This document shows, piece by piece, positions 31,885 through 62,439 of a stretch of DNA of 64,000 nt. A program made the position numbers and the translations under genes. Position 1 is the first letter of the stretch, and the number at the start of each line of letters is the position of its first letter. Below the pieces are notes generated by a model. That model was not told the DNA's origin and made no database searches. It worked only from the letters and a program-made list of their open reading frames with translations. The stretch comes from a virus (Duplodnaviria; Caudoviricetes), in IMG/VR virus record IMGVR_UViG_3300044703_000023, positions 207-64,206 of that record. One strand, 5' to 3'.

Positions 31885-32051
31885 TTTCTTTCGCCTCCAT
31901 TCAGTTACCAACACGGTCGCTTCGAGCAGTGCGACCGTGACTTGACGCCTCGCGCTGCGTCCGTCGCCCTAAATCAAATTCTTCAACGTTAAACTCTTCA
32001 ACGTAAGTACCCATACACCCCAACCGCAATTATCCTCAGACATTGGACGGA

Positions 32052-32543
32052 TCATGGCTCCATCGCTTTCTTCAGTTCGTCAATTCGAGCCTTCAGGGTT
32101 TGTTCGGTAGCGGCAGACTCCGGTACCTGGGCGCCGCGCTTTACTCCAGCCCCGCTCGAGCCACCGTAGTAAATCTTGGCACTCTGAATTATTGCCCTTA
32201 AGATCGACTCGACCTGTTGCAGTCTTTGGTGCGATCCAAAGTGCCCGCGAGACTCAACCGTTTCAAATAAACCTTCAAACTTCTCGACTGCGTTTAGCTT
32301 GCAGGACTTGTCTGGGCAGGCGTCAATATCCTGCTTCAACGTCGCGGCGCCGTTCGCCAGGTCGCTGAAGTCCACGATCAACCCTGACTTGATCGACGGG
32401 GAGAGGGGCAGGGAACTGATAAGGGGACCGGACGCGGCAAGGATTACCCGCAACTGGCCGGCGAAACTTCCACCGCAGGCTTGAGTAAACAGGGAGAAAG
32501 AAATAAGAAGTGTGATTATGCTAGTGCGCTTTAGAGTTTTCAT
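32052..32543 (-). CDS. Lipoprotein (spanin-like?)
   Basis: Signal peptide with lipobox FTQA-C; next to the holin-like gene. Confidence 0.6.
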   Translation of the reverse strand: MKTLKRTSIITLLISFSLFTQACGGSFAGQLRVILAASGPLISSLPLSPSIKSGLIVDFSDLANGAATLKQDIDACPDKSCKLNAVEKFEGLFETVESRGHFGSHQRLQQVESILRAIIQSAKIYYGGSSGAGVKRGAQVPESAATEQTLKARIDELKKAMEP

Positions 32544-32545
32544 AT

Positions 32546-32854
32546 TCAGCCCTTTCCGACTATCGGCAATGCCGCTGCGTCTGCCTTGATCACGCTCATC
32601 GACGCACCCGCAGGCGCGAATCGCGCCGCTTCGATTAAATTGTGATTCGACTTCTTGCGGTACAGCGTGATCGCCAAGTCAATTCCCGCCGTGACAATCG
32701 CCCCGGCAAGTATCAGAAGATTTTCAGAGGTGAGAACAGAGTCGGCACGTAGGCCATGCTGGGCGAGGTAAACCGCTAGAAGCGTCAGGCCGCGATTAAC
32801 GTAGGTAATTGCCGTGCTCTTTAGAATCTCATCCCAAGACATCTGTAAGGCCAT
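32546..32854 (-). CDS. Putative holin
   Basis: 102 aa, two TM helices, basic tail YRKK. Confidence 0.6.
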   Translation of the reverse strand: MALQMSWDEILKSTAITYVNRGLTLLAVYLAQHGLRADSVLTSENLLILAGAIVTAGIDLAITLYRKKSNHNLIEAARFAPAGASMSVIKADAAALPIVGKG

Positions 32855-33207
32855 TACTTTTTAGCCCTCACTTTCTGATAAGAGAATCCCACGAAATAGA
32901 GATTTAAGTTTCAGGCAGAGCGATTTGGTGGGCGTTACGACGAGCGCGAGGCGGATCGTCACGGTGGGGCGGTCGCAACAAAAGCGCGACCGTCTTGGTA
33001 CCTTGAGTGCCGATGTCACGTTTATCCCACTTACTTAATCCGCCAGCCCAAGATTCAGTACACCAAATAGGTTATAAATAATTCGCTTGAAACGAAGGAA
33101 TTCTATGGACAAGTTACTTTCCCTGTGCGAAACTCTCCTTGTTCGAAAACGCGGGCCGCGACGATATACGCGGGGCGCTCGAAAGAGCAAAAAGGGAGAT
33201 AAAAAGA

Positions 33208-33434
33208 TGCCAGCAGTTACCAAAGGTTCTGAAAAGCAAATCGCGTGGGCCACGACAATCGTCGAACAAGAAGTAGCCCGCCTTGACCGTATGCTTGCTC
33301 CGATCCCACCCAAGGAAGAGCGAAGCGAAATCTTTCAAAAGCTCTACGGCGAGGAAATCGCCTTCGTTAAGGCCGTTCGGAACACTCTCGAAAAGCGCGT
33401 CCAGAGTGCTAAGTTCGTGATTGATACGACGTAA
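33208..33434 (+). CDS. GSEKQIAWA-motif phage protein, possibly truncated
   Basis: GGGAG RBS; KGSEKQIAWA. Confidence 0.6.
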
Positions 33435-33465
33435 CGTCCCAAGTCCGTGACGGTAACTGGAAATT

Positions 33466-33774
33466 TTGGTTGTTTACGGCGAGACGGCAGACGAGGCCGC
33501 CGCAAAGCTCAAGGCCCGTCTTGAGAGTGAATTTGACGGACAGGCGGCAGGAATGCTCCTCGCTTCCCGCGTCGTCGAAGTTCGTAAGCCCGCGACCGGC
33601 GAGAACTTGGGCCGTCAGTTTATTGGCACTGCTCAAGAGTTGAACCGCATGGGCGCTTCTTGGATTTGGGCAGACCGCGATCCCGCGAATTGGCCCGCAC
33701 GAATCGAGGGCTTCTATACCGACGAGGCTGGAAGCGCAGTGCTTTTCGTTCTCGACTGGAACGAAGAAGAATAG
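33466..33774 (+). CDS. Hypothetical protein (5' end possibly damaged)
   Basis: No RBS at the TTG. Confidence 0.45.
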   Translation: MVVYGETADEAAAKLKARLESEFDGQAAGMLLASRVVEVRKPATGENLGRQFIGTAQELNRMGASWIWADRDPANWPARIEGFYTDEAGSAVLFVLDWNEEE

Positions 33775-35828: not shown

Positions 35829-35918
35829 GGTTTGGTTTAGTTGCGTTACAAAATCATTTAGTTTCAGGAGCGAATCGCGTAGCCACGTAAATGGTTTCGC
35901 GCGTGTCGCACACCTTGC

Positions 35919-36299
35919 TTATCGCGCAAGTCCGAAGTGCTCGAAGGCCCGCCAATAGTGTTCGGAGCCGAAAGGAATTCTCGCCGCCGCTGGAATCTTA
36001 TTAGCCATGCGCTCCGCTCCTGCCGGATTGAAGGAATGCACGATGATGCAAAGCGGCTGATCTTCAACTGGCATTTCATCTATAGCTTGCGCGACTGCGT
36101 ATCCGCTCACCTCGTTCGACTCACAAAACACTTCACCACCCAAATCGTGATCGAGCGATGCAATGTCGAAGTCGAGATGCGTGTCTAGCAACGCAATCGC
36201 GTCTTGAGCGGTTTCTGCGGTCAGCACTTCATGGCCTACGGTCTTTTCCATAAACTTTGCCGTGCGAATTGGATCGTCATCTAAGAATAGAATCTTCAT
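35919..36299 (-). CDS. Stand-alone receiver-like (cyclic-phosphate-processing REC) protein
   Basis: ILFLDDD.IR, SLDHDLG, SGYAVA, IVHSFNPAGAERM. Confidence 0.8.
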   Translation of the reverse strand: MKILFLDDDPIRTAKFMEKTVGHEVLTAETAQDAIALLDTHLDFDIASLDHDLGGEVFCESNEVSGYAVAQAIDEMPVEDQPLCIIVHSFNPAGAERMANKIPAAARIPFGSEHYWRAFEHFGLAR

Positions 36300-36561: not shown

Positions 36562-37116
36562 TCAGCTTGCTCCTACCGGCTTGGGTGTTGTGTCTCTTGT
36601 CTGTATCTCGACAATCACGTTGTACGACCGCTCACCTATCGGCGTCTGTTCGTACTCAAAGGTGATTCTTGTATCGCCATCGTCCACGCCGATCTGCCTT
36701 GCAATCTGATCTCGGCAGGCTTTGAAACTGCCCGCGAGGTTGTCACTGTCCATCCGCTTTGGGCCAACCCGTGTGAGTCGTACAACACACGGCAGTTCAA
36801 CCCTGCGGCCCTGTAGCGCATTCAAGAACATCACGCCCATAGCCGTTTGCTGATCCTTCCGCCTCCGCATCTTTACCTGCCACGGCTCGCGGCTGCTTCG
36901 GTTGGCTTCGGATACAGTGCGGATCGGCGCGTCGAACACTAGATTGCGAATCATCCCTGGTGCGTTCCTACGAGGGGTAGAGGCTACCTGCTCCGTCTCG
37001 CGCTTTGGCGAGCGGGTCGGAGACACCCTTATGTTTGGGTTGGTTGTTCTGGTTTTCATTTCAAGACTTTTCATCTTCCTGTTCTTCTTCCACTCCTTCT
37101 CTGTTACTCGGTACAA
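36562..37116 (-). CDS. RusA-like Holliday junction resolvase
   Basis: SEAN...MDSDNLAGSFKACRDQIA..IGVDDGD; start uncertain. Confidence 0.75.
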   Translation of the reverse strand: MYRVTEKEWKKNRKMKSLEMKTRTTNPNIRVSPTRSPKRETEQVASTPRRNAPGMIRNLVFDAPIRTVSEANRSSREPWQVKMRRRKDQQTAMGVMFLNALQGRRVELPCVVRLTRVGPKRMDSDNLAGSFKACRDQIARQIGVDDGDTRITFEYEQTPIGERSYNVIVEIQTRDTTPKPVGAS

Positions 37117-37253
37117 AAATAAAATCCTCTAAGTTATGAAAACCAGAACCTTTCTTGCGAACGTTTACGACCTCTCCGACCCGCTGGCGAAACCGCCAGA
37201 CGGACTAACTAACCTCTGCTGTTTTGAAATGTTCGCGCACCATGCTCATTGCC

Positions 37254-38539: not shown

Positions 38540-38589
38540 TGGGGCGGCATGTGGGGCTCGAACCCACGACCTCCTGAACCACAATCAGG
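38540..38589 (-). other. attP core: 3' half of tRNA-His(GTG)
   Basis: CCTGA-TTGTGGT-TCAGG anticodon arm, GTGGG-TTCGAGC-CCCAC T arm, ATGCCGC-C-CCA; no D arm or 5' acceptor strand; about 155 bp upstream of the integrase. Confidence 0.9.
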
Positions 38590-38744
38590 GTTAGCATTAC
38601 AACCAGCCACAACCACACAAAGCCCTCCGCAACTAAAAACATCCGAATACCTTGATTATAGGCTCTTTGTGGCGTACCGTCATCAACTATTTCCAGTCCG
38701 CGACCACTCGAAACAGCAAACGAATTGGCGCACAAAGTGTAGAC

Positions 38745-39926
38745 ATGCCCCGCGAGCGTAAACTTCAAATCGTTGAGAAGCGCGGAAAGATTTATGCCCG
38801 CACTACCTATGTTGGCCTTGATGGGAAGCGTCACGCCATCTGGCGGGCAGGAAAGAACAAGACCGCCGCAAAGGATAATCTCCGCGAGGCGCTCCGCGAT
38901 CTGGAGAGAGAAGGCGACGGCGCCATGATTAACGCCAAGCGAACCTTTGGCGATTTGGCCGCATGGTATTCCAAGCGTTACTTGATTCCGCCGGAGTATC
39001 GCGATGGTCGCGTGGTTAAAGGAAAGCGATCCTGGCAGAACGAAACCTATCAACTGAAAGCAATCGTCGCCTACTTTGGCGGCTACAAATTGCGATCTAT
39101 TAGTCACGGTGAATTGGAGAAGTACAAGGAACACCGCCTTGCTACTCCTATCGTTTTCGAGCGTAAAGACCCGAAGGCCAAAGGCGGAAAGACTGTCACT
39201 CACCGGAACAGAACGATCACCACCGTCAACCGCGAGCTTATGGCGATCCGCGTGATGCTCAGAAAGGCACAGAAGGAGGGTTGGCTGCTCCGCATTCCCT
39301 TTGAGGAGCACGATCCGCTGATTAACGTGTCTGACGAACGGCGAAGAGACAGAACGCTGTCCTACGAAGAGGAGGCGCGATTGCTGGCTAGTGTAAGAGA
39401 CTTTGTGCGCCCGATTCTCGTGTGCGCCTTGGCGACAGGTATGAGACTGGGAGAAATTCTTAAGCTCGCGTGGCCGGATGTCGATCTGGATAATAGATTG
39501 ATTCGTATTCGCTCGACTAATACCAAAACCCAGGATGAACGCTACGCTCCGATCACCGCCCCGCTGCTCGCGGAGTTGAAGTCGCTTAAGGCTACGGCGC
39601 TGCCGGATGCTGAAAGAGTCTTTGGAATCAAGTCGAACATTAAAAGAAGTTTCCGCAGTGCGTGTGAACGCGCCGGAATCAAACATGGCGGCGTAGACGG
39701 TCTGACGTTTCACTCCCTGCGCCACACGGCGGCAACGAGAATGATTAAACAAGGGATGGACATTACCGCTGTGGCGAAAATTCTTGGTCATCGTCAGGTA
39801 TCTACAACCTATCGGTACGTTTCGGCGGATTCAGACATTCTTGATCGGGCAAGGGAAGCATTGTCATTTAGGCCGCAATCTTCTTCTCAAACCGCCGATG
39901 AAAAGACTCCACATGATCCGGACTGA
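38745..39926 (+). CDS. int: Tyrosine integrase
   Basis: TGMRLGE, TKT, FHSLRHT, LGH...TTYRY catalytic residues. Confidence 0.97.
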   Translation: MPRERKLQIVEKRGKIYARTTYVGLDGKRHAIWRAGKNKTAAKDNLREALRDLEREGDGAMINAKRTFGDLAAWYSKRYLIPPEYRDGRVVKGKRSWQNETYQLKAIVAYFGGYKLRSISHGELEKYKEHRLATPIVFERKDPKAKGGKTVTHRNRTITTVNRELMAIRVMLRKAQKEGWLLRIPFEEHDPLINVSDERRRDRTLSYEEEARLLASVRDFVRPILVCALATGMRLGEILKLAWPDVDLDNRLIRIRSTNTKTQDERYAPITAPLLAELKSLKATALPDAERVFGIKSNIKRSFRSACERAGIKHGGVDGLTFHSLRHTAATRMIKQGMDITAVAKILGHRQVSTTYRYVSADSDILDRAREALSFRPQSSSQTADEKTPHDPD

Positions 39927-40062
39927 GATACCACACCTTACGCCCTTCTTTGCAGTGATCGATTTCTCCATTGCGTCGCATCCTGGCAATGCTCTCCCGA
40001 TGCCAGCCAACCTCTTTAGCAAACTGCTCTTCGCTTAACACTTTTGTTTTTACTGCGCTCAT
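39868..40062 (-). CDS. xis: Excisionase (winged HTH)
   Basis: LSEEQFAKEVGWHRESIARMRRNG...GRKVWY; convergent with int. Confidence 0.75.
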   Translation of the reverse strand: MSAVKTKVLSEEQFAKEVGWHRESIARMRRNGEIDHCKEGRKVWYLSPDHVESFHRRFEKKIAA

Positions 40063-40096
40063 AGGCTTACCCCCAAAAAATATCCAAATCTTTTAT

Positions 40097-40780
40097 TTAA
40101 GACGCCTGCCCGTGTGGGCCATCATCACGGTCGTAGCTCGCTGCGCTCGTCTTGGTATCTTTAATCTTTGGCACGGCGAGCCGAAGCGGATCAAGGAAGT
40201 CTGACGGATAATTTCTGTCGGTTCGTGCGGGCATTACGATGCCAACAAAATCGTCACGCCCATATGCCATAACTACCGCCTGCGACTTCCCGTCTTTCAC
40301 GAACAGGTCGATAGGTGCGCCGACAACATCTCCGATGCTGCAAGCTTCAAGGTATCTACAGTTAAACGACAGCGGCGACGCTGTGTAAGTTTCGGGGATA
40401 ATCATCTGCCACTTAGGAAAACGGATGTCTGGTGCGTCGGCGATCAGGTCAAGGAACCGTGCTACAGCGGCTTCCTTGTATTTACCTCCTTGCATCGTTG
40501 CCTTAATCACGTCCACTGACCGATCTTCATTTACAACCAAAGCCCGCCCATCTTCACAGACCATTGATACCCACTCTCGCCAGAACAGATTGAACGGCTC
40601 GTCACACTTTCCTTCCGCGTCGCGGAAGATCGCCATCGTGTGACCGTTTGTTGCGATGATAAGAACGCCGCTCACTGGATGCGGCTCAAGGCGCACGGCG
40701 CTGAGCGTGTAGCGGCTTTCCTCTTTCGTTACGAACGCGCCAGCCTCGCGGTAGTAGCGAGCATCAATAGTTGCCTTCAT
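40097..40780 (-). CDS. DNA polymerase III beta-clamp-like protein
   Basis: EESRYTLSAV...IIATNGHTM, FPKWQMIIP, FNCRYL, GIVMPAR match clamp domains 2-3. Confidence 0.75.
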   Translation of the reverse strand: MKATIDARYYREAGAFVTKEESRYTLSAVRLEPHPVSGVLIIATNGHTMAIFRDAEGKCDEPFNLFWREWVSMVCEDGRALVVNEDRSVDVIKATMQGGKYKEAAVARFLDLIADAPDIRFPKWQMIIPETYTASPLSFNCRYLEACSIGDVVGAPIDLFVKDGKSQAVVMAYGRDDFVGIVMPARTDRNYPSDFLDPLRLAVPKIKDTKTSAASYDRDDGPHGQAS

Positions 40781-40858
40781 ATCCTCCACCCTTTCCAAGA
40801 CCGCGAAAGCGGCCACGACCGTACAGTTTCGTATCCAAGGTTTTATATCTTCATCAAA

Positions 40859-52303: not shown

Positions 52304-52352
52304 TTGTTTTTCTCCTTCAGTAAGAGAGGTAGACCAAAATCAGTCAGTCTGC

Positions 52353-52742: not shown

Positions 52743-52747
52743 TTCAC

Positions 52748-52972: not shown

Positions 52973-52994
52973 CCGCTTAGGCTCTAGTGGAATG

Positions 52995-53310: not shown

Positions 53311-53366
53311 CTGTAATTTTCAGGTAGCTATCCCACTCATCAATGAAACGAACGAGGCGACTGCGC

Positions 53367-53642
53367 TCAATGTAGGAAGGGTTGTCGTAAAATGATCGGC
53401 GACTCTCCTGGCACGAGCGTCATGTGGCGCGAGCCGCGTGTTCCGATTTTGCGAGTAAAGAAATAACCGCCCATCGCCATGACAAATTCATGAAGCTCGG
53501 AGTGCTTGCGGAGTATTTCTCGCGCCTGCTGTTCCACGAACACCGACGCGGCCTTCGAGGCTTTGCCGTAGTGGCTTTCAATTTCCTTTTCGGGTCTCAT
53601 CCTGCTTTGCCTCAAGAACTGAAATCTACAGGGTGCGCTCAA
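53367..53642 (-). CDS. Hypothetical protein
   Basis: Probable start MRPEKE; EFVMAMGGYFFT. Confidence 0.45.
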   Translation of the reverse strand: MSAPCRFQFLRQSRMRPEKEIESHYGKASKAASVFVEQQAREILRKHSELHEFVMAMGGYFFTRKIGTRGSRHMTLVPGESPIILRQPFLH

Positions 53643-53976
53643 ATAATTCCGGGGCTGCGTAGAGGCGCGATCTGTGCAGAAAGAACCTTTTCCGCAGCCC
53701 GTTCTCAGGCTTCACCCGAGCCTGAAACTCAAATCTGTCTACCTTCTGTCGCATGGGCGATTCGCCTCACTGTCCGGTCTAACCAAAAGCACTTAAAGAA
53801 CTTTGACGGAAGCATGAAACCCTTCGGGGATAGCCTTAACAAAAACTTAACTTGCAATCACTTTTGGAAGTTGTAGGGTGGGAATATCACTTAGGCCCAC
53901 CGCTTTTTTGGGTCTTTTAGGGGCGTATGCGGTGTCAGCCGTATGCGCCTCAGTTTTTCTCAGGCTGCGTACTCAA

Positions 53977-54159
53977 TCACGTTGTGGGTTTCCTTAGCGC
54001 CGCCTGAACTTGCGGAGCGTTCTCAATGAGCATTCGGACGAAGCCAGACTTAGACCGATTGTCCTTGTCACTGGCGACTTCCACGGCGCGGGCAACGTGC
54101 GGCGGGACCAGCGCGCCGACCATTTCTAATTCGGGTTTCTTTTTCTTTTTAGTAGCCAC
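53977..54159 (-). CDS. Cro-analogue, ribbon-helix-helix protein
   Basis: EMVGALVPPHVARAVEVASDKDNRSKSGFVRMLIE; first gene of the leftward early operon. Confidence 0.75.
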   Translation of the reverse strand: MATKKKKKPELEMVGALVPPHVARAVEVASDKDNRSKSGFVRMLIENAPQVQAALRKPTT

Positions 54160-54166
54160 GAACGAC

Positions 54167-54210
54167 CTTATACCTTAAAGGTTCTTAAAAAGCAACAAGA
54201 TTCTTAAATA
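54167..54210 (-). promoter_or_regulatory. Leftward early promoter with operator
   Basis: TTGCTT-tttaagaacctttaagg(17)-TATAAG, then 7 nt to GTG 54159; second site AAGATTCTTAAA near 54197. Confidence 0.75.
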
Positions 54211-54258
54211 ATATAAATCTATCTTCCAAACCCTCAGAAATGTTAATGAAGTGGAAAT

Positions 54259-54546
54259 ATGCCTAAGGAAAAACGTAACAAGATGATCGGCGCTCTTGTG
54301 CCCCCGTCGATCAAGAAAGAAGTTGAGGCGATTTGCGTAAACGAGGATCGCTCTATCAGTACGGTAGGCTACATGCTGCTAATGAGGGCGTTGGAGCTTT
54401 ATCGACTGGATGGCTCGCTGAGAAACAACGAAAGCCTTCTGTCTATCGTTGCAGGGCTAGCTGAAGACCTTTACTCAACCCCGGAACAGAAGAAACCCGA
54501 TGCCGCCGCAAAGCAGTCAAAAGTCAAACTGAGACGTACCGCGTGA
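54259..54546 (+). CDS. Putative immunity repressor, ribbon-helix-helix
   Basis: KMIGALVPPSIKKEVEAICVNEDRSISTVGYMLL; paralogous to and divergent from 53977-54159. Confidence 0.75.
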   Translation: MPKEKRNKMIGALVPPSIKKEVEAICVNEDRSISTVGYMLLMRALELYRLDGSLRNNESLLSIVAGLAEDLYSTPEQKKPDAAAKQSKVKLRRTA

Positions 54547-54977
54547 AACTTGCTCGTCCCTGCCATTGGTGCGACGCGGGAACCGCCCTTGACGCGGGTC
54601 GGTTATGCGCTCCCTGTCGTAACGCGGCAAGCGGTCTTGGGCGGCTCTCACTAAACGAACTGGACGCCTTGCCTTACGGCGTTATGTCGGTTGATCTTCA
54701 GGGCAACATCTTGGCCGTTAATCGCCCTGAGCAGGAGTTCGCCAAAATAACCCTTGCGCAGTCGCTCGGTAGGAATTTCTTCACTGAGATCGCGCCCTGT
54801 GCCCAGGTACGCGGATTCAAGAGTCGATTCGAGGCCTTTATCAAAAGCGGTCGGGCCGTGCATGGCTTCCGCTTTACCTACCGTTTCCCTAACGGCCCTA
54901 TTGTCGTGGTAATAGAACTCGTTAGAGCGTCCGAAAAGACCGTTATTATTGCCAGGCGTATTCCTGCCAGCCGCTAA
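54543..54977 (+). CDS. pyp: Photoactive yellow protein (PYP)-like PAS protein with N-terminal Cys4 motif
   Basis: Gap-free match to Halorhodospira PYP residues 15-79 (recalled): LDALPYG..VD..GNIL..N..E...GRNFFTEIAPC; Glu46 and Cys69 equivalents kept. Confidence 0.9.
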   Translation: MKLARPCHWCDAGTALDAGRLCAPCRNAASGLGRLSLNELDALPYGVMSVDLQGNILAVNRPEQEFAKITLAQSLGRNFFTEIAPCAQVRGFKSRFEAFIKSGRAVHGFRFTYRFPNGPIVVVIELVRASEKTVIIARRIPASR

Positions 54978-55042
54978 CCACTCACCGAACCCCTGACAGT
55001 TAGTAAAAACTCCTAACAAAACTGGCACAAGCCTGGACGGCG

Positions 55043-55101
55043 AAAGAATCTTTAAGAAGTTTGCGAATTAAGTTGACACCTTTAAGGTTCTTTAATATAC
55101 T
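55043..55101 (+). promoter_or_regulatory. Rightward early promoter with operators
   Basis: TTGACA-cctttaaggttctttaa(17)-TATACT, then 7 nt to GTG 55109; extra site AAAGAATCTTTAAG at 55043. Confidence 0.85.
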
Positions 55102-55108
55102 GCTGCGC

Positions 55109-55663
55109 GTGGACACCAAGGCTACAGACAATTACCGACCTTCCCGCTCCGAAAGAATAGCCATGCGGAACTTCGTGCTTCGCCACTTGCTACTGCTCTC
55201 GGATTTGGAGATTGCGGTTTTGGTTATTCGGTACACCGCACTGGGCAACCGCTTTTTACCGAGCTGGAAGCAGATAGCGCCGTTGGTTAACGAGGACTGG
55301 CAGACGGTGAAGAACGTCCACGATATGACATTGCTGCTATTGGCGCGGCGAACCGAAGAAAAGTATCTACCTCATACCATGTGGGACTTACAGGCAGACG
55401 TTGAAAAGGTCAAAGAGGACGCACGGCGCAAGAGTGCCGGTGCAATGCAGTCGGGACGGCTGGTGAAGCAACCCTGTCAAAACTGCGGCGCGGGCGCTGA
55501 ATTCTCAGAAGGCCATCACCGTAATTATTTCAAGGCGCTCGCGGTTACGTGGCTATGCCATCCCTGCCATCTGGCGGAACACGCAGAGAACCATCAGATA
55601 AACGGCGCGATGCTAATCCCGACGAGCGAGATTTTAGAGAACCATGAACGGCTCGGACTGTAG
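55109..55663 (+). CDS. HTH-like + HNH-like zinc-finger protein
   Basis: LSDLEIAVLVIRY...SWKQIA (sigma region 4-like); CQNC...EGHHRNY...WLCHPCH. Confidence 0.65.
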   Translation: MDTKATDNYRPSRSERIAMRNFVLRHLLLLSDLEIAVLVIRYTALGNRFLPSWKQIAPLVNEDWQTVKNVHDMTLLLLARRTEEKYLPHTMWDLQADVEKVKEDARRKSAGAMQSGRLVKQPCQNCGAGAEFSEGHHRNYFKALAVTWLCHPCHLAEHAENHQINGAMLIPTSEILENHERLGL

Positions 55664-55675
55664 CGCTAGGAGATT

Positions 55676-55930
55676 TTGATACTCGTCATGGAAACGAACG
55701 GATCACAGATAGGCAAACTGAAAATGACAACCACACAAATTATTAAACGCTGCACAGAGAAGTTGGGCATGACGCCCGACGAGGCGAAGTGGGTAGCAGA
55801 AAATCTCTATACCTACGAGTGTCCCGATTGGTCTGAGTGGTCATGGCAGCAAATCGACACATGCCTTAGAGGCGTTCTGTTTTTCAGAGGCAAGACAGAC
55901 ACTGAAGTGATGACGGCGTTAGCGGGATGA
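55676..55930 (+). CDS. Hypothetical protein
   Basis: PDWSEWSW; ATGA overlap with the MTase. Confidence 0.55.
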   Translation: MILVMETNGSQIGKLKMTTTQIIKRCTEKLGMTPDEAKWVAENLYTYECPDWSEWSWQQIDTCLRGVLFFRGKTDTEVMTALAG

Positions 55931-56655
55931 ACTTCGGATCGCTCTTTTCAGGTATTGGCGGAATGGATTTGGGGCTTGAGCGCGCGGGAATGGAGTGCGC
56001 GTGGCAGGTTGAAATTGATCCCTTTTGTCGCAAGGTTCTAACGAAGCATTGGCCTAACGTACCAAAGTTTAACGATGTCAGAGAAGTTGGAAAACACAAT
56101 CTTGAACCAGTTGACCTTATCGCAGGCGGGTTCCCCTGTCAGCCTTTTTCCATCTGTGGAAAGCAACTCGGATCGGGGGACGCTCGATACCTCTGGCCGG
56201 AAATGCTTCGAATCATTTCTGAGATTAAACCCCAATGGGTTGTCGCAGAAAACGTTTCTGGCCTCGCTTCTAACGGCGGAGTTGAGCTTGAACGAGTGTG
56301 TAGCAGCTTGGAGCTTGCGGGGTATCAAGTGTTCCCGCCGCTTAATCTTCCAGCTTGCGCTTTTGGCTTACCAACCTTGGAACGGCACCTCTGGATTATT
56401 GCAACGACCGCTAGCGAGCGACTCCAAGGGCGCGAAGAAATCCAGGACGCGAACAACCGAGATGAAGGGCAATTACCGCGAGCAAATCAGGGAGTCGATA
56501 AGCGATGGCATTTATCCGAATCCAGAGTTTACCGAAGCCGTAAAGGGATTCCCTATCTCTTGGAGCGAAATCACGGACTAGGAAACGCAGTACCGCCGCC
56601 TATGGCGAAGTGGATCGGGCAAAGGATTCAAGAGACAAGCGCATTAAGCGGATAA
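55927..56655 (+). CDS. dcm: C5-cytosine methyltransferase, alpha subunit
   Basis: SLFSGIGG, GGFPCQPFS, ENV, RHLWIIA, LGNAV; motif IX absent. Confidence 0.93.
   Translation: MNFGSLFSGIGGMDLGLERAGMECAWQVEIDPFCRKVLTKHWPNVPKFNDVREVGKHNLEPVDLIAGGFPCQPFSICGKQLGSGDARYLWPEMLRIISEIKPQWVVAENVSGLASNGGVELERVCSSLELAGYQVFPPLNLPACAFGLPTLERHLWIIATTASERLQGREEIQDANNRDEGQLPRANQGVDKRWHLSESRVYRSRKGIPYLLERNHGLGNAVPPPMAKWIGQRIQETSALSG
56075..56581 (+). CDS. C5 methyltransferase beta subunit in overlapping +1 frame
   Basis: Ends PNPEFTEAVKGFPISWS (motif IX-like); M.EcoHK31I-type arrangement. Confidence 0.75.
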   Translation: MSEKLENTILNQLTLSQAGSPVSLFPSVESNSDRGTLDTSGRKCFESFLRLNPNGLSQKTFLASLLTAELSLNECVAAWSLRGIKCSRRLIFQLALLAYQPWNGTSGLLQRPLASDSKGAKKSRTRTTEMKGNYREQIRESISDGIYPNPEFTEAVKGFPISWSEITD

Positions 56656-56678
56656 GTTTCAGCCAAACAGGAGACTAC

Positions 56679-56954
56679 ATGCCAGAAAAGAATTCAGATC
56701 AGGTGGTAGATGAAAACCAGAACCGAGGAAGCCTCGACATCACGGAAGGTAAAGACAGTCTGGTTGCGGTAGCGAAGAAAGATGATCGGTTTGATTCTGT
56801 GGTTGGCGCATTCGACGAGGTTGAGCGACTAATCGGCTGGCTTGGCTATATCCGGGAAAATGAATATAGCCCGAGCGAGAGAAAAAGACTGATCTCATCG
56901 GCCAAAAGGTTCGCAGAAATTGCGCAGCCGATCGCGAGTAAGCATCTCGATTGA
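56679..56954 (+). CDS. Hypothetical protein
   Basis: AGGAG RBS; N-terminus encoded by a repeat copy. Confidence 0.55.
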   Translation: MPEKNSDQVVDENQNRGSLDITEGKDSLVAVAKKDDRFDSVVGAFDEVERLIGWLGYIRENEYSPSERKRLISSAKRFAEIAQPIASKHLD

Positions 56955-57015
56955 GGTTCTAATCAGCACGCGCTCTTCTTGCGCTCGTCGTTGGCCAAAC
57001 AAATAAGAGGTAGAA

Positions 57016-57369
57016 ATGGGAAGCACTGAAATTGACGACTGTCCGAGAGTAAAACTTTTCCTGGCTTGGGAGTGTCCGACTTGTGGAGGACTAAACATCT
57101 ACAGCGAGGGCGAGGAGCGACAACGTGCATGCCGATGCGGGACACGAGTAGCTGTCGGCGCTCGCTGGGTTGATGACTCCCGCGCCGCACTGATCGCCGC
57201 TGCAAAAGCCGCACTGGAATACGTTGACGGTTTAGACGAGGACACGCCAGTTGATACGCAATGTACAGAATGCGTTCAAGGCACTGTCTATTACACCAGG
57301 GGAACACCGCGTCCTGAACTTTGCTGGATACACCAGCTTCAGGCTGCAATACGAAAGGATGGTCAGTGA
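57016..57369 (+). CDS. Cys-rich hypothetical protein
   Basis: GAGGT RBS; CPTC, CRC, CTEC. Confidence 0.6.
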   Translation: MGSTEIDDCPRVKLFLAWECPTCGGLNIYSEGEERQRACRCGTRVAVGARWVDDSRAALIAAAKAALEYVDGLDEDTPVDTQCTECVQGTVYYTRGTPRPELCWIHQLQAAIRKDGQ

Positions 57370-57575
57370 TGGATAACATTTATTTGAGGGGCTCAGAAGA
57401 TGTGCGAAACGCGGGCAGTGCGATGCGCGAAGCGGCGGCAGAAATGTCTCGTGCCGCAATGAATATTCAAGGCACGGCAGACCAGCAGCAACGGTTCCTT
57501 GATGACTGGCTTATGCGCTTTACCGATACCGTGGAGACACTCGCCCAAACGCTCGCGGTTAAGGAGGCGAAATGA
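57369..57575 (+). CDS. Hypothetical protein
   Basis: MDNIYLRGSEDVRNAG. Confidence 0.55.
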   Translation: MDNIYLRGSEDVRNAGSAMREAAAEMSRAAMNIQGTADQQQRFLDDWLMRFTDTVETLAQTLAVKEAK

Positions 57576-57769
57576 GTACACGCGAACAGCGAATCAACGC
57601 GCTGCCAGAAGAACTCTTGATTGAAGCTAAGCGTGAACTTGAATGTCAGGAATGGTTCATCGCACTGCCAGATAACGCCAGCGAGGACGAGGCCGTGTTC
57701 AGCCTCGCGCTGGAAATGCAAGAAGCAAGAGCAGAGAGGGAAGCGGCTTAGTGGAATAGAAAGAAGTGA

Positions 57770-58075
57770 GTGGACGTGGGCCATAACACAGTAAAGAACG
57801 CAAGCGGAAAAGCGGTGACAATCGAGGAGGTCGAAGAACTCTTTAGTTTCTTGCAGGGCAACGAAGTTGAGGGCATTCATTGCGAATTTATGCCAACCCT
57901 AACGAAGCAGGAAGCATTCTCTGTTGTTTACTTTTTGCAGGAGCATATGAACTTGTTGCCGGACTCTGTTGAGCAGTGCTTGGAATGCCTAACTCTGGTC
58001 GATAACGACTCCGAGGGGTACTACAAAGAGGGTGTTGGGCACTACTGCGACAACTGTTCACTGCAAGTTGAATAG
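57770..58075 (+). CDS. Hypothetical protein with CxxC pairs
   Basis: AFSVVYFLQEH, CLEC, CDNC. Confidence 0.55.
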   Translation: MDVGHNTVKNASGKAVTIEEVEELFSFLQGNEVEGIHCEFMPTLTKQEAFSVVYFLQEHMNLLPDSVEQCLECLTLVDNDSEGYYKEGVGHYCDNCSLQVE

Positions 58076-58096
58076 GGGCAGCTTAGATTACTGGAA

Positions 58097-58402
58097 GTGA
58101 AGGAGAAAGAAATGGACGATTCAAATAATGAAAACCAACCCGCTCAACGGTGGACTTCCGGACTCTATACCGAGCCTCGAATAGTGTTCGTCTTTCGAGA
58201 TGATGAGTTCGATCACATTTTGCGATCCGTTGATGGCTGGCCCTACGACAAGCGCGATTTATTTCTAACTGAAAAAGAGGCGATCAGTGCCGCGAGAAAG
58301 TTAAGCATTGCGGAGATCGACCGCCAACAGAAACGAGTCAACGCACTTGATGAGCGTTACGACGCCATTGAAGACGCAGAGATGGCCCAAGCAAATGGAT
58401 AA
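58097..58402 (+). CDS. Hypothetical protein
   Basis: AAGGAG RBS before MDDSN. Confidence 0.55.
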   Translation: MKEKEMDDSNNENQPAQRWTSGLYTEPRIVFVFRDDEFDHILRSVDGWPYDKRDLFLTEKEAISAARKLSIAEIDRQQKRVNALDERYDAIEDAEMAQANG

Positions 58403-58676
58403 GTGCGATTGGCATAAGGACGATCAGCCTGTCCATCCATATATAGGGTGCGAGTTTTGCGGGACAATGCTCTCCACCAAAACTTGCGCCGGCTGCCGCC
58501 AGGACTTCCTCGACTGGGAAGATCACTCGTTCGACGACATTATCGCGGGACCATATTGTTCTCTGAGTGGGGATTTGATGTGCACGAGATGTGGTCCACA
58601 GAGCGACGCTAGAGCAGAAGATGCAGAAGATGCCGAGAGCGAGGCTTACGAAGATATATGGCTCGACGAGGTATGA
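58395..58676 (+). CDS. Acidic Cys-rich hypothetical protein
   Basis: MDKCDW...CEFC, CAGC, CTRC. Confidence 0.5.
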   Translation: MDKCDWHKDDQPVHPYIGCEFCGTMLSTKTCAGCRQDFLDWEDHSFDDIIAGPYCSLSGDLMCTRCGPQSDARAEDAEDAESEAYEDIWLDEV

Positions 58677-58700
58677 GCCTATTCAAGCAGAGGAGATTCA

Positions 58701-59159
58701 ATGAGACGCAAGACGGGTGAAGAGTTGAGGTCCGCACTTGAGGCAAAGCGAGCCTTTTATCGCGAGTGCGTTGTCGAAGTGCCGGGCTGGATGCCTGAGG
58801 TTGTAGGCATCTTTATCGGCGGGTGCGTTGCTCGCGGCGTCGGATCTTCGTTCCGCGCGCAAGCCCACGCGCACAACTCCCGAGTGCTAAAGACTCGGTT
58901 TGACATAAACACGGGATGGATTTGCATTCGTTCTATCGCTCGCCTGGGAAAATATCACGCGGTGGCGCAAGGCGATGGTTCTACCCTGATCGTTATTGAC
59001 AAAGCCTCACGGCTCTTAATGCATGAATACGCGCACATACTCTGTGAAGGCCACGGCCATGATGATAAGTGGCGCAAGACCATGAAGCGATTAGGGCAAC
59101 CACTGCCCGCCCAGTATCAAAAAGGAATCGCGGAATGGAATGATAAGTGGGAATTGTAG
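58701..59159 (+). CDS. SprT-like HExxH metalloprotease
   Basis: LLMHEYAHIL...HGHDDKW. Confidence 0.75.
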   Translation: MRRKTGEELRSALEAKRAFYRECVVEVPGWMPEVVGIFIGGCVARGVGSSFRAQAHAHNSRVLKTRFDINTGWICIRSIARLGKYHAVAQGDGSTLIVIDKASRLLMHEYAHILCEGHGHDDKWRKTMKRLGQPLPAQYQKGIAEWNDKWEL

Positions 59160-59206
59160 GCTGTGGCCCACTCAGAAGTGTGAGCCAAACAAAATAAGGG
59201 AGAGAA

Positions 59207-59674
59207 ATGGAAGATAAGAAGCTAGTGGACGAGGGGCAGAACCCTTCTATTCCAGAGAACACGGATCGTAAAGACAGTTTGGTTGCGGTTGCCCCGCCGT
59301 TCACAGAGGGGCCGTGGAAAGTTGAGACGCCACGCGACCGTGAGGACTCGTTGTCGGACGAAGGCGATCCAGAGTGGGACGAATCCTATCCTAAAGGCGT
59401 TACGGTTCGTGCTGCGTGGGCCACCCCGCGAGAAGGATTACTAGGATACGAAATCTGCCGGATGGCGGGCGTTCACAAGCGCACACTGCCTAACGCCCGA
59501 CTGATAGCCGCCGCTCCTGCGCTTTATGAGCGACTAAAGGACGTGCTGCAACGTTGCGCAGAGCGCGAAGTCTTCATGTGTGACGACTTTGCTCACGATG
59601 GCGATTGCAACTGTGAGGGAGACAAAGCGTACGCCGCGATTGCGTTGGCATCAGGCCAGATGCCGCCTCGCTGA
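59207..59674 (+). CDS. Hypothetical phage protein (TxGPW...NARLIAAAP family)
   Basis: FTEGPW, NARLIAAAPALY. Confidence 0.7.
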   Translation: MEDKKLVDEGQNPSIPENTDRKDSLVAVAPPFTEGPWKVETPRDREDSLSDEGDPEWDESYPKGVTVRAAWATPREGLLGYEICRMAGVHKRTLPNARLIAAAPALYERLKDVLQRCAEREVFMCDDFAHDGDCNCEGDKAYAAIALASGQMPPR

Positions 59675-59841
59675 AAGCGGGCAAACAACCGTGATGACGG
59701 GGTAAAGGTGTTCTACCCCTCGTCCCCAAAAAGTATTTATGAGATGACGATCAAGATTTATTTAGCGTACGACGAGCGCGTAGCCACGACTAAGGTTATG
59801 CGCGTATCGCGCACCCTGATTTTACTAACTGGAGGATCGCA

Positions 59842-60258
59842 ATGGGACAGTCAACAGATGGATGTATTGCCTATGGCGTCGTGTTCGAGGATGGCTACGA
59901 ATTTCCGTGGGATGCCGAGCCTTTTAACGGCGACTTAGAAGAATGGTGGCGAGTAGAGCAAGGGTTTGATGCGAGCAAGGGCTATCCCGCCGAAGGGTGG
60001 CTTGATTATCAAAAGCAGTTCGACGCTGCGCACCCTCTTCCGGCACAGGTCGAAAACTATTGCTCTGGCAATTATCCAATGTGGCTACTGGCTGTGCCGT
60101 CTAGTCGCCGTTCTGCCTCGCGGGGCGAGCCTGAAAAACTCGACGCGCTACCAGATGTAACGGAAGCGGAAAAAACCGCGTTGCGAGAGTTTTGTGCCAA
60201 GTATCAGTTGACCCCGGAGAAAGCAGAGGGATGGTATCTCTATAGCTACTGGGGATAG
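59842..60258 (+). CDS. Hypothetical protein
   Basis: GGAGG RBS; MGQSTDGCIAYG...WYLYSYWG. Confidence 0.7.
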   Translation: MGQSTDGCIAYGVVFEDGYEFPWDAEPFNGDLEEWWRVEQGFDASKGYPAEGWLDYQKQFDAAHPLPAQVENYCSGNYPMWLLAVPSSRRSASRGEPEKLDALPDVTEAEKTALREFCAKYQLTPEKAEGWYLYSYWG

Positions 60259-60333
60259 CGCGAGCGTACCAACACGGCGAAGCCGGTACAACCGTGATGA
60301 TGGGCCAGTCGCTCGCGGTAAGCCCAAAATAAA

Positions 60334-60759
60334 ATGCTGAAACAGCGAACACAACTCAAGAGAGTTAGATTCAAGCGTCCCCACGTAGCTAAATCAGGAG
60401 TTGGCGGGGCTACGGCGAGCGCGTACCCCAAGATTAGGGATCGCCAAGACATCAGAGGTTCAAGGTCGCTGCGGGTTGGAAAGAAAGGCCGCGACTGGAT
60501 TGCTGTGCGGCGCCGCCTTAGCGCAGAGTTTGCCGCCAGGGGCATCGTGTCCTGCGAGCTAGGCTATGAGTCATGTTGGGGACAAACGGCGTTGGGGTGG
60601 GCACATGGCCGCAAGCGTCGGCACTTAAAAGACAACGAGCTGGAGACGCTGGTAATTCTTTCCTGCAACCCTTGTCACGACAAGATTGAGTATCTGCCGC
60701 CGGCTGAAATGTTGGCGATTGTTCAGGACGTTATCTCCAATAGAAGAAAGGTTGCATAG
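60334..60759 (+). CDS. NinG/HNH-like nuclease
   Basis: CE....C, WAH.RKRR, LSCNPCHDKIE. Confidence 0.6.
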   Translation: MLKQRTQLKRVRFKRPHVAKSGVGGATASAYPKIRDRQDIRGSRSLRVGKKGRDWIAVRRRLSAEFAARGIVSCELGYESCWGQTALGWAHGRKRRHLKDNELETLVILSCNPCHDKIEYLPPAEMLAIVQDVISNRRKVA

Positions 60760-60954
60760 ATGGCAAAGAATAACGAGACGCCGAAAGGATTTACATGCGA
60801 GTGCGGCGAGTCCCACGCCTTTGGTGTGTACGTGTTCGCGCATTGGGATGAGGCGTTAACTCACACATGCGACTGCGGACGTAAGCATGTTATCCGCAGC
60901 GGGCTGGCAACGCTCATCAAAGAAGCGAAGAACTTGCGGAGTAGAAAGCGATAG
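60760..60954 (+). CDS. Small zinc-ribbon protein
   Basis: CECG...CDCG. Confidence 0.55.
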   Translation: MAKNNETPKGFTCECGESHAFGVYVFAHWDEALTHTCDCGRKHVIRSGLATLIKEAKNLRSRKR

Positions 60955-61124
60955 AGGCTACTAACCAAAAATAAATCAGATTCAGAATTCAGGTTAATGA
61001 AGAAGTAGAACCAAGTAAAAAGCATTCAGGTTAATGGGAACAGAACCCTTCTAGCCCAGTTCACGGATTCGCGCATATTGCGCGCCCTGCTTCTAGCGGA
61101 TGAACTCTTTTCTAACTTACGTTT

Positions 61125-61523
61125 TCACGGCGCGCCGCAACTATTAAAACTCGTTACACTAAGCGCATGGGCATTCACCGTTGTTGATAGTTCGGGCGGC
61201 ACGGTCTCAGCCACAACCAACGTTATTCGGTTCTCAGCCCGCGAAGTTCTCAGAACTACGTTCGCTGAGTTAATAACATCCCGCGTGTTGTCCATAGTGG
61301 AATCTACATTGCCACCAATCTGAATTTCAAACGGGCTGGATGCGGAATCTCTGAAAGTAAATACCGCTTCTCCAATCGTGAGCGTGTTTCCATCCTGCGG
61401 TAAAGAATCTCCAATAAAGACAATTTCAGCCAAGAGGAATGGATGCGGGTGTATTCCATCGCCATCAATGTCGAGGAACTGAGTGTCAGAGATAAATCGC
61501 GCGCGGATGAGTGTGAGTTCCAT
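61125..61523 (-). CDS. Putative virion accessory protein
   Basis: DGNTLTIGEAVFTF beta pattern; last gene of the late operon. Confidence 0.5.
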   Translation of the reverse strand: MELTLIRARFISDTQFLDIDGDGIHPHPFLLAEIVFIGDSLPQDGNTLTIGEAVFTFRDSASSPFEIQIGGNVDSTMDNTRDVINSANVVLRTSRAENRITLVVAETVPPELSTTVNAHALSVTSFNSCGAP

Positions 61524-61527
61524 AGCG

Positions 61528-62439
61528 TTAGTAAACGTATCCAAACACGTCGATCACAACTGTTGCTGTGATTGATGTGTCGTTAAAGGCACAACCGAAC
61601 ACGTCGGCTGCTGTGCCGATCTTCCAAACGACGTTTGAGCCATTACTAATCTGAGAGAAGCCAAGCGCAACGGTGGCGTCGGTGATTCCGGTAAGTGGCT
61701 GTGCACCTATGCTCCCAAAGTCGCTCACGCCCGCGTTGAACCCAAAAAACATCGCATCGCCCATTGTCGCTAAACTTGCGCTTGCGTTTCTTAGAATCAC
61801 TTTCGTAATCACACAATGCTTCAGCGCGGGACAGGTATAAAGAGGCTGTTTAGTGCCCACGTTCGTATCGACGGTGGTAGTCGAGAGAAGCGTATCCGCG
61901 AAGTCTTGAATGCTCGCCGCTGTGACTGTCGCGCTCGCTGGAGTTTCACTAACCCAGTCTGTTCCGTTTGACGTGAGTACGTTGCCATCTGTACCGGGTG
62001 CAACACTGGGAACATTGTGAGAATCATTCAGACCTTTTGGAGTAACGAACTTAGTATCGTTTGTTCCTGTATCTATCTCTGCTCCCGTGGCTTTGACTGG
62101 CACTGTTCCTATGCTGAACGGCCCGCTCCAAACATTCGTACTTAGACAGACGTATTCGCCTTCACTGCCGCCGCCAGTCTTAACAAACACATCATCGGGA
62201 GAACAGGTTGCGGGGAGAGTCGCACCGCCGCGAATCTTGCGGGCCTTATTGCTTATCACTTGGCCCACCATCAAGAAGGGAAGGAAGGGAACGCCAGCTT
62301 GAGGCCGATAGATACCAAGCACGATCATGGCAACGAGGCCCAAGAAGATAAGACAAGGTGTGCGATACGCGCAGAACCGTGAACTCTCGCCTCGCGCTCG
62401 TCGTTCGCTCAACATAGTTCTATTCATATTGTTTTTCAT
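61528..62439 (-). CDS. Tail-fibre-like protein
   Basis: LPATCS.DDVF, ATGAEIDTGTNDTKFVTPKGL, GTDGNVLTSNG fibre motifs; start uncertain. Confidence 0.65.
   Translation of the reverse strand: MKNNMNRTMLSERRARGESSRFCAYRTPCLIFLGLVAMIVLGIYRPQAGVPFLPFLMVGQVISNKARKIRGGATLPATCSPDDVFVKTGGGSEGEYVCLSTNVWSGPFSIGTVPVKATGAEIDTGTNDTKFVTPKGLNDSHNVPSVAPGTDGNVLTSNGTDWVSETPASATVTAASIQDFADTLLSTTTVDTNVGTKQPLYTCPALKHCVITKVILRNASASLATMGDAMFFGFNAGVSDFGSIGAQPLTGITDATVALGFSQISNGSNVVWKIGTAADVFGCAFNDTSITATVVIDVFGYVY

Follow-up and report, generated by a model that had tools for sequence, protein, structure and literature searches.

Phage genomes are mosaics, yet few lineages have yielded the sequences at which single accessory genes enter or leave operons, and the promoter early stem-loop (PeSL) elements are the main example. 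These composite stem-loop repeats of T4-like phages are reported, in the cited portions of the literature, to act as regulatory cassettes and are proposed to mediate modular gene shuffling (PMC2839356, PMC4122927). Both PeSLs (PMC2839356) and the start-associated and extended start-associated sequences (SAS/ESAS) of mycobacteriophages (PMC3203893) are described there as repeats limited to non-structural genes. Here we identify a comparable but distinct family in a 64,000-nucleotide stretch (the window) of the Caudoviricetes record IMGVR_UViG_3300044703_000023. The family is a degenerate element of ~70 nt with 14 copies, all between 31.9 and 62.4 kb, and inverted pairs of copies bracket accessory genes with their hairpin ends facing inward. 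Both the repeat family and its inverted bracketing are real. We tentatively propose that the repeats are gene-boundary modules of moron-like accessory genes that also provide patches of homology, as PeSLs do.

The element begins with a 5' flank, TACCAASAC (RCARGGTG in subtype B), which is followed by a variable hairpin (3-9 bp stem, 3-10 nt loop) and the core ACRACCGTGA. Beyond the core lies an outer part of one of two types. Type 1 begins TGATGGSCC and could form a second small hairpin, and type 2 carries a CGCCTCGCGCTCGTCGT-like sequence (CGCGCTCGTCGT-like in the alignment of copies); the distal end of the element is A-rich (AAATAAAA-like). Mean column identity across the MAFFT alignment of the 14 copies is 47%. 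The copies and the genes beside them are given below, with gene ends taken from open reading frame (ORF) lists and our own reading of the sequence.

31907-31983, + strand: full copy, hairpin end 21 nt upstream of the start of gene 31408-31884; outer type 2; E 7e-11
32922-33000, - strand: full copy in the divergent gap between 32546-32854 (-) and a + operon from ~33208; outer type 2; E 4e-7
35858-35922, - strand: full copy with a subtype B hairpin that abuts the cREC_REC stop codon (3' position); E 4e-7
35919-36299, - strand: cREC_REC receiver-domain gene (PF20274, E 6e-16), with a downstream copy only, its proposed upstream partner at 36394 being unsupported
40086-40159, - strand: full copy at the 3' end of the RusA-like gene; outer type 1; weakest hairpin of the family; E 2e-8
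40097-40780, - strand: bracketed gene of the RusA-like Holliday-junction resolvase family (phrog_3007, E 3e-16)
40793-40865, + strand: full copy, though degenerate, 12 nt before the start codon of 40097-40780; E 8e-5
42460-42507, + strand: partial copy, ACCGTGA plus a type-2 outer part, no hairpin; nhmmer E 0.033, R1 E 2.5 (R1 being the covariance model described below)
42502-42574, - strand: full copy, 12 nt past the stop of the N6_N4 methyltransferase gene; outer type 1; E 3e-8
42587-43312, - strand: bracketed N6/N4 DNA methyltransferase gene, by family match
43326-43397, + strand: full copy filling the gap from the stop of 43404-43703 to the methyltransferase start; outer type 2; E 8e-9
51463-51537, - strand: full copy, ~10 nt past the stop of 51555-51998; outer type 1; E 1e-8
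51555-51998, - strand: bracketed gene, 147 aa, no family match
52015-52087, + strand: full copy, 16 nt upstream of the start of 51555-51998; outer type 2; E 6e-13
59662-59738, + strand: full copy at the 3' end of gene 59207-59674, whose stop codon lies in the hairpin loop; outer type 1; E 7e-7
59757-59823, - strand: full copy with a subtype B hairpin, ~20 nt before the start codon of 59842-60258; outer type 2; E 8e-8
59842-60258, + strand: bracketed gene, 138 aa, no family match
60267-60338, + strand: full copy, 8 nt past the stop of 59842-60258; outer type 1; E 1e-12
60405-60439, - strand: marginal, partial copy that consists of a type-2 outer part within ORF 60334-60759; nhmmer E 0.009, R1 E 0.09
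61031-61095, - strand: copy with hairpin subtype B, ~25 nt past the stop of 61125-61523; E 6e-4
61125-61523 and 61528-62328 (or 61528-62439), - strand: two bracketed genes, one weak tail-collar-fibre match
62352-62423, + strand: full copy, hairpin subtype B, outer type 2, upstream of the ATG at 62328; E 2e-12

Some of the gene labels in an initial annotation of this DNA are borne out by these assignments, namely a REC-like gene at 35919-36299 and a methyltransferase at 42587-43312. Its clamp-like label for 40097-40780 gives way to the match with the RusA-like resolvase family (phrog_3007), and its two tail genes (61125-62439) are indeed two genes, with a tail assignment that comes from one weak match.

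Searches with models of the element recover the family. We built a profile and a sequence-only covariance model (R1) from the 14 hand-picked copies. The nhmmer profile regains all 14 (E 2e-12 to 3e-4) together with marginal extras only, and R1 run with filters off does likewise for 14 of 14 (E 6e-13 to 6e-4). Because the models derive from hand-picked copies, this recovery is circular, and independent checks were therefore run. Unsupervised repeat finding lists the common blocks of the family without prior knowledge. Each of three composite motifs, with 2, 4 and 4 occurrences, exceeds its expectation of 0.00-0.01 (100 shuffles), and TACCAASAC with at most one mismatch occurs 28 times against 15.3 expected, a count reached in none of 100 shuffles; the similarity thus exceeds shuffled controls, one of the comparisons on which the earlier claim had been made to depend. 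Identical low-depth pieces spanning two copies (51872-52101 and 60204-60356) are present in a second soil run, so the sequence is no accident of assembly. The 64,206-base single-contig record, of which the window covers all but 206 bases, has ends that overlap by 127 bases at an assembly depth of ~132, indicating a circular, complete assembly of ~64.1 kb. Chance similarity or an assembly artefact could draw on the circular E-values of a profile made from hand-picked copies, but is extremely improbable given the excess of composite motifs over every shuffle, the unsupervised recovery, the second soil run and the closure of the assembly.

The estimate of about 18 recurrences in the initial annotation comes down to 14 copies with two or three partial ones (42460-42507, 60405-60439 and 56980-57005) in the profile and R1 searches. 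Twelve of the 16 pair positions that it listed are regained (35855, 40091, 40793, 42510, 43324, 51450, 52015, 59655, 59755, 60267, 61030 and 62351). Position 36394 gives no R1 match even at E<=10 with filters off and is by eye a relic at most, and position 56940 coincides only with a partial outer-part CGCTCGTCGT match (nhmmer E 0.15). Positions 56705 and 59225, again with no R1 match at E<=10, are N-terminal coding parts of the paralogous genes 56679-56954 and 59207-59674. The paralogous N-termini of these two genes share 38 nt at 84% identity, with differences that are apparently synonymous, and this sequence reappears in non-coding form in the outer part of the copy at 61031-61095. The head and tail genes at 1-19 kb had been said to lack copies, and this extends to everything below 31.9 kb, including the structural half, where the best match has an E of 0.77 (nhmmer) or 2.2 (R1).

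Placement ties the copies closely to gene edges. In 13 of the 14, the hairpin-side end lies within ~25 nt of a start or stop codon: six copies stand upstream of starts (31907, 40793, 43326, 52015, 59757 and 62352, the last so classed on the assumption that its gene starts at the ATG at 62328), with the hairpin end 11-21 nt before the start and the ribosome-binding site between, and seven stand at or after stops (35858, 40086, 42502, 51463, 59662, 60267 and 61031), with the hairpin end at the stop or up to ~25 nt past it. The architecture proposed earlier, inverted copies with inward hairpin ends around single accessory genes, is seen in five pairs: 40091/40793, 42510/43324, 51450/52015, 59755/60267 and 61030/62351. 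The first four bracket one gene each and the last brackets two. Eight bracketing pairs had been proposed, and the other three (35855/36394, 56705/56940 and 59225/59655) are not fully supported. Under random orientation, five inward pairs would have a probability of (1/4)^5, ~0.001, by our arithmetic and before allowing for other notable patterns. The adjacency of occupied gaps is not striking in itself, with 4 observed against ~2.6 expected for 13 occupied of ~60 gaps, by our estimate. What the members of a pair share in inverted form is the gene-proximal flank, hairpin and core; their distal parts are not common. The outer part tracks position: type 2 is carried by 6 of 7 upstream-group copies (32922 being counted with the six upstream copies) and by 1 of 7 downstream (Fisher two-sided ~0.03, calculated by hand). 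In three gaps (42460-42574, 59662-59823 and 60267-60439) a downstream-type copy is followed tail-to-tail by an upstream-type copy or fragment, the copies at 59662-59738 and 59757-59823 among them. The bracketed genes are accessory in kind, comprising the methyltransferase, the cREC receiver, the RusA-like protein and ORFans. GC content does not set apart the two bracketed genes compared, 40097-40780 and the methyltransferase gene, from their neighbours.

The hairpin varies in sequence and keeps its pairing. By eye, it is found at the same place in 13 of 14 copies with at least eight different stem sequences, the copy at 40086-40159 being weak. Across the eight copies with 3-nt loops, 31 of 32 stem-pair cells are paired, compared with 67% in shuffles (31 was reached in 0 of 500), and three of the four pairs change on both sides; controls slid along these ungapped copies fall to 12-63%. 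The 11-mers used here come from 8 of the 14 copies, were chosen by eye as hairpins and include four of the related subtype B, which biases the test toward pairing. Within that bias, the earlier statement that stems differ while pairing is kept stands. Loops in the eight copies (GAA three times, AAA, ATA three times and ACA) are purine-rich on the element's own strand, irrespective of the direction of transcription. RNAalifold found no consensus structure in the MAFFT alignment because hairpins of unequal length are misaligned there; R1 was hence kept to sequence and pairing was assessed on the ungapped subset. The copies are old: they have diverged (47%) and nevertheless retain motifs and pairing, which fits selection on function rather than a recent burst.

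Three features fit exchange between copies. Subtypes are mosaic, with the subtype B hairpin combined with different outer parts. The partial copy at 42460-42507 is cut exactly at ACCGTGA, which directly abuts the ribosome-binding site of the Dam-like gene 41757-42440. The copy at 61031-61095 is a hybrid, in which the outer part resembles codons ~10-17 of gene 59207-59674 up to CACGG and the B hairpin follows. Members of a pair are not each other's best match, and the strongest inverted matches join copies of different cassettes. No flanking direct repeats or target-site duplications were seen in the flanks read. A comparison of contigs from two soil runs, one of them perhaps the source, with 42450-62449 revealed no joint at any repeat; since contigs cannot reveal rare rearrangements, this weighs neither way.

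The signs of exchange could also be ascribed to dedicated, structure-dependent recombination sites. On this unlikely alternative, a phage enzyme (the integrase, the RusA-like protein or an HNH protein) would recognise the frame and hairpin on folded single-stranded DNA or at a junction, and inverted sites would permit capture, inversion or exchange of single-gene cassettes, the idea put forward in the initial annotation. Single genes bracketed by inverted copies would suit such sites, as would the stem covariation, the conserved flanks, purine loops tied to one element strand whatever the transcription, and the breakpoints at ACCGTGA (42460-42507) and CACGG (61031-61095). Loops of the GCGAAGC type, which form unusually stable DNA mini-hairpins, would suit them too. 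Candidate enzymes are encoded as well: the RusA-like protein, itself bracketed, and at least two HNH-family genes besides an integrase.

38652-39926, + strand: Xer-like tyrosine integrase, the sole recombinase found
~38540-38590: tRNA-3'-end-like segment (antisense), the likely attP core, just upstream of the integrase
39868-40062: Xis-like ORF
41091-41627 and 49557-50060: genes of the HNH-endonuclease family (phrog_374/3377)

ORF 60334-60759, whose ATG lies in the A-rich end of the copy at 60267-60338, may be a third HNH gene by our reading, and it has no family match. A 71-nt segment at 44724-44794, in the gap between primase and helicase, is 80% identical to part of the second HNH gene (49557-50060) and may be a remnant of a third homing-endonuclease-like gene.

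Against dedicated sites, the integrase adjoins an ordinary tRNA-type attP candidate and scores far below the cut-offs for integron integrases (TIGR02249, 65.8 bits against 265) and for its best model, XerA (98.7 against 220). Window proteins give no match to serine recombinases or to resolvase/invertase families. By our reading of the alignment, the sequences on either side of the hairpin lack the complementarity of attC-like R boxes, and no 11-6-11 dif-like dyad is present. The outer parts vary with transcription direction. The lack of direct repeats, the unmatched pair members and the age of the copies argue in the same direction, as do a 74%-identical methyltransferase homologue that lacks such flanks in another viral contig and the restriction of the family to this one genome among those searched. 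It is improbable, too, that the family constitutes a previously undescribed phage gene-cassette system, in which paired sites would let the phage capture, flip and exchange counter-defence and other accessory genes within its operons; if true, it would be functionally parallel to integron and pdif cassettes and unrelated to them in sequence and geometry.

We searched for the family in related phages. Relatives traced through the helicase share it at 77% identity (G001, complete, 62 kb), 81% (a 6.5-kb fragment) and 68% (a provirus). The G001 primase is 46% identical (amino acid), and DNA similarity to G001 spans ~2.2 kb around the helicase of 20 kb compared, plus one 34-base identity. Two exact-pattern scans of viral contigs returned 11 and 9 loci with 0 R1 matches. 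The element flanks none of the homologues of three bracketed genes (methyltransferase, 10 loci, best 74%; 138-aa protein, 42%; 147-aa protein, 48%), and the 74%-identical methyltransferase directly abuts its neighbours. A single R1 match near the methyltransferase homologues was rejected as GC-rich, 1.2 kb away and without the motifs. No relative was found in a scan with the RusA-like gene or in a metagenome scan with a 456-aa protein. All four bracketed genes tested are absent from G001-G003, as is the non-bracketed 456-aa gene beside one cassette; of the three non-bracketed controls in G001, the helicase and primase are present and that gene is absent. Absence of bracketed genes from the nearest complete relative is therefore uninformative, because a non-bracketed control is missing too.

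The 34-base stretch is 100% identical between window positions 33171-33204 and G001 (L040 7619-7652), phages that otherwise share little DNA similarity. It is a leader in which a GCTC-GAAA-GAGC hairpin precedes the ribosome-binding site for the opening gene of a small + strand operon. In G001 a TTGACT-17-TATAGT promoter is present upstream of this stretch, which looks like a conserved translational or RNA operator. G001 also carries a tandem array of ~15 copies of a 24-nt unit (L001 966-1492), an array absent from the window.

Likely hosts were searched as well. Fifteen genome records contain an exact match to a 32-base piece of the tRNA-like segment; 13 of them are labelled Acidobacteriota and 8 of these Pyrinomonadaceae, and both sequencing runs that hold the phage are soil metagenomes. 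Because this attP piece is identical in Acidobacteriota genomes and the runs come from soil, the host is probably a soil Blastocatellia or Pyrinomonadaceae bacterium. Five genomes with the attB-like tRNA end gave no R1 match at E 0.01 (150 of ~1000-1600 first-look candidates scored per genome). Among 121 genomes of the likely host family, 16 (including the unpublished G021 and G118) gave one or two weak matches, 17 in total, with E of 9e-4 to 9e-3. We rejected these as false positives: the ten fetched are 62-83% GC and without the 5' flank, and five represent one conserved segment. The covariance-model scan of relatives and hosts that the initial annotation had called for thus found no copy in other phages, at homologue loci or in 126 genomes of the likely host group (Pyrinomonadaceae), and as far as searched the repeat family is unique to this phage.

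Selfish small repeats, akin to MITEs (miniature inverted-repeat transposable elements), mobile insertion cassettes (MICs) or repetitive extragenic palindromes (REPs), might have spread in this genome with a preference for gene ends, bracketing being a by-product. Copies that overlap ORF ends, the resemblance of the tail-to-tail doublets at 42460-42574 and 59662-59823 to REPIN-like doublets (REPINs being REP doublets that form hairpins) and the absence of the family from the nearest relatives would agree with such a spread, and MITEs common to phages and hosts are reported in the cited part of one study (PMC11602168). This origin seems to us rather improbable. Identity is only ~47% per column, the flanks read show no target-site duplications, bracket copies are not mutual best matches since the strongest inverted matches join different cassettes, and the common inverted part is inner rather than terminal. 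No transposase was found among the proteins scanned (small ORFs covered in part), and the 5 and 121 genomes of the likely host family hold no convincing copy.

Position-dependent outer parts, a common part that is gene-proximal, the absence of direct repeats and pair members that are not best matches all point towards a possible role in gene expression or at gene boundaries. Readings of the outer part as a sigma-70, sigma-54, extracytoplasmic function (ECF) sigma or T7-like promoter were dropped when no match was apparent by eye. No RNA run is among the sequencing runs listed as holding the phage. A rival reading is that of operator or roadblock sites for a phage DNA-binding regulator, similar to stoperators; set in either orientation, they would insulate particular genes in the prophage state or at an early stage of infection, with no part in gene exchange. 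The motifs are indeed short, conserved, asymmetric, intergenic and limited to the non-structural part, restriction to one lineage would agree with co-evolution between the sites and a binding protein peculiar to the phage, and the phage appears temperate. We nevertheless consider roadblocks a doubtful explanation: stem covariation shows selection on intra-strand pairing, which a repressor that binds double-stranded DNA would not need, no candidate regulator was identified, and ~70 nt is long for an operator.

Our preferred, tentative reading remains that of PeSL-like gene-boundary modules. In each module, short conserved sequences (TACCAASAC ... ACRACCGTGA) would frame a small hairpin that is free to vary in sequence. 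One version would occupy the gap from the stop codon before an accessory gene to that gene's ribosome-binding site, with the inverted version right after the stop of the gene. The modules would mark the points at which moron-like accessory genes have been spliced into long early and late operons. We envisage two functions. The modules could provide local nucleic-acid structure at both gene edges; a hairpin survives inversion and would accordingly form in the transcript at either side. They could also serve as patches of shared sequence for homologous or microhomology-driven recombination between copies, by which single genes might be added, swapped or inverted. The family, its confinement to the non-structural part, its positions at gene edges, the inverted bracketing, the stem covariation and the correlation of the outer part with position are direct observations, whereas we infer the effects on transcripts and the recombination at repeats.

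A number of results weigh against this proposal. Whole elements fold no better than shuffles (z -2.2 to +0.6, 15 sequences) and many stems have only 4 bp, so that the case for the hairpin rests on its position and covariation. In a consensus scan no copy contains a sigma-70-like promoter, and 0 of 12 promoter-like sites between 31 and 64 kb lie in one; the GC-rich stem and T-run of an intrinsic terminator are apparent in only 1 of 14 copies (59799-59813). Pairing of the 5' and 3' copies as a panhandle within one transcript was considered and rejected, as the minimum-energy fold of cassette 51455-52095 leaves the cores unpaired (z +0.65). With the purine-rich loops of the eight copies fixed to the element strand, a transcript would present one version at the 5' edge and its complement at the 3' edge, and this speaks against recognition by one RNA-binding factor. 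The copy at 32922-33000 fits neither the 5' nor the 3' class: it is not beside a start codon and, although it points as upstream copies do, lies 200 nt from the start at 33208. Other copies overlap coding sequence. The RusA-like ORF, whose family profile stops at residue 189 of 227, runs ~60 nt into the copy at 40086-40159 with a C-terminal stretch beyond that profile, gene 59207-59674 has its stop codon within another copy, and the copy at 62352-62423 would be translated as the N-terminus of ORF 61528-62439 if that ORF starts at 62439. R1 finds no copy at the loci of the relatives traced through the helicase or in the whole records G001-G003, and no repeat family comparable to this one occurs in G001, the closest complete relative; in this the family differs from SAS/ESAS, for which the cited portion of the report describes conservation across the cluster.

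The repeats nonetheless offer a clean, countable case in which inverted copies of one structured element mark the limits of accessory genes at either end. Should they be a boundary for recombination or expression, they would provide a handle for predicting exchangeable cargo, here a methyltransferase, a cyclic-phosphate receiver domain and a junction resolvase, and a new example of sites defined by structure rather than sequence. Should they be only a lineage-specific regulatory repeat, they would be an ordinary though tidy addition to known phage repeats.

The uncultivated phage that carries the family has no close relative in culture. A megablast search of a phage collection gave no match to the window, and the best cultured-phage match of the helicase is 35% identical in protein comparison. 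An Rfam scan of the window returned 0 matches at or above the gathering threshold, and a search for tRNA genes found none there. In layout the phage is temperate, with the integrase and Xis-like ORF listed above and a switch region.

54.1-55.1 kb: switch region; consensus sigma-70 promoter at 55073, strong canonical terminator at 53920

Repeated AAGGTTCTT(T)AA-like operator candidates surround divergent genes in this region (54160-55100), which also contains an ORF with a PAS domain (54543-54977). At 55927-56655, an ORF for a C5 cytosine methyltransferase matches only positions 1-169 of a 324-position profile and may be truncated or split; it is encoded besides the Dam-like gene 41757-42440 and the N6/N4 methyltransferase 42587-43312. 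An RNase H/RVT_3-like gene (19808-20374) lies between the terminase region and the gene for a 2057-aa polyvalent protein (22337-28510) with SLT lysozyme-like, GNAT acetyltransferase and ADP-ribosyltransferase (ART-PolyVal) domains. Unrelated to the repeat family is the window's longest inverted repeat (36979-37023 / 37173-37217; 45-nt arms, 80% complementary, 149 nt apart).

Comparison with known systems places the family among several without matching any. The pdif modules of Acinetobacter plasmids are bounded by 28-bp XerC/XerD dyads, with two 11-bp arms and a 6-bp spacer, in alternating orientation. The five hairpin-inward pairs resemble them in that single- or few-gene modules lie between inverted sites, whereas the copies have no conserved 11-6-11 dyad, their sole dyad being the variable hairpin with its 3-10 nt loop. 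Integron attC sites occur once per cassette in a single orientation and carry complementary R''/R' boxes. Our elements recall them in favouring structure over sequence, with a variable stem between short conserved motifs and an Xer/IntI-like tyrosine recombinase encoded nearby. They depart from them in that each gene carries two inverted copies, TACCAASAC and ACRACCGTGA are not complementary, and the phage integrase reaches 65.8 bits against the 265-bit integron-integrase cut-off; an additional outer stem of GTAC type is present in only 2 of 14 copies (60267 and 42502, by our reading). The earlier statement that the repeats match neither pdif nor attC agrees with the alignment, which has neither an 11-6-11 dyad nor complementary core boxes. 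Hairpin promoters of the N4 type go with a phage-encoded virion RNA polymerase. The virion-type protein of 2057 aa shows SLT, GNAT and ART domains only; it has no PHROG and no PDB sequence match, and its C-terminal ~1000 aa match no family.

REP and REPIN sequences occur in many chromosomal copies with an associated transposase, the REP-associated tyrosine transposase (RAYT). None was found among the window proteins scanned, with no search aimed at RAYT. As far as the cited portions describe them, MITEs, mobile insertion cassettes and REPs resemble the family as short non-coding, hairpin-capable repeats that sometimes form inverted doublets and sometimes carry passenger genes (PMC3116915, PMC11602168). 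The window copies differ in having low identity and no outer terminal inverted repeats, with no target duplications seen and no copies found in host genomes. With the SAS/ESAS of Cluster K mycobacteriophages, as presented in the cited portion of the report (PMC3203893), they share a hairpin-capable inverted repeat with a variable spacer, upstream of the starts of some non-structural genes. ESAS, however, is described there as having one orientation, as tied to a 13-bp start-associated sequence and as conserved across the cluster (PMC3203893), whereas the window family, with no copy in G001-G003, also marks the 3' ends of genes in inverted form. The likeness to PeSLs, on the cited portions of the reports (PMC2839356, PMC4122927), lies in a repeated motif with a stem-loop that fills the gap from stop codon to ribosome-binding site before small accessory genes in plastic non-structural regions. 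PeSLs are said in the same portions to carry a consensus sigma-70 promoter, to point with transcription and to act as terminators (PMC2839356, PMC4122927); the window copies have neither a promoter-like site nor U-tracts, occur in both orientations and form inverted brackets. Set apart by this inverted 5'/3' arrangement, the lack of a promoter and its restriction to one lineage, the family appears, by analogy, closest in logic to PeSLs and closest in look to ESAS.

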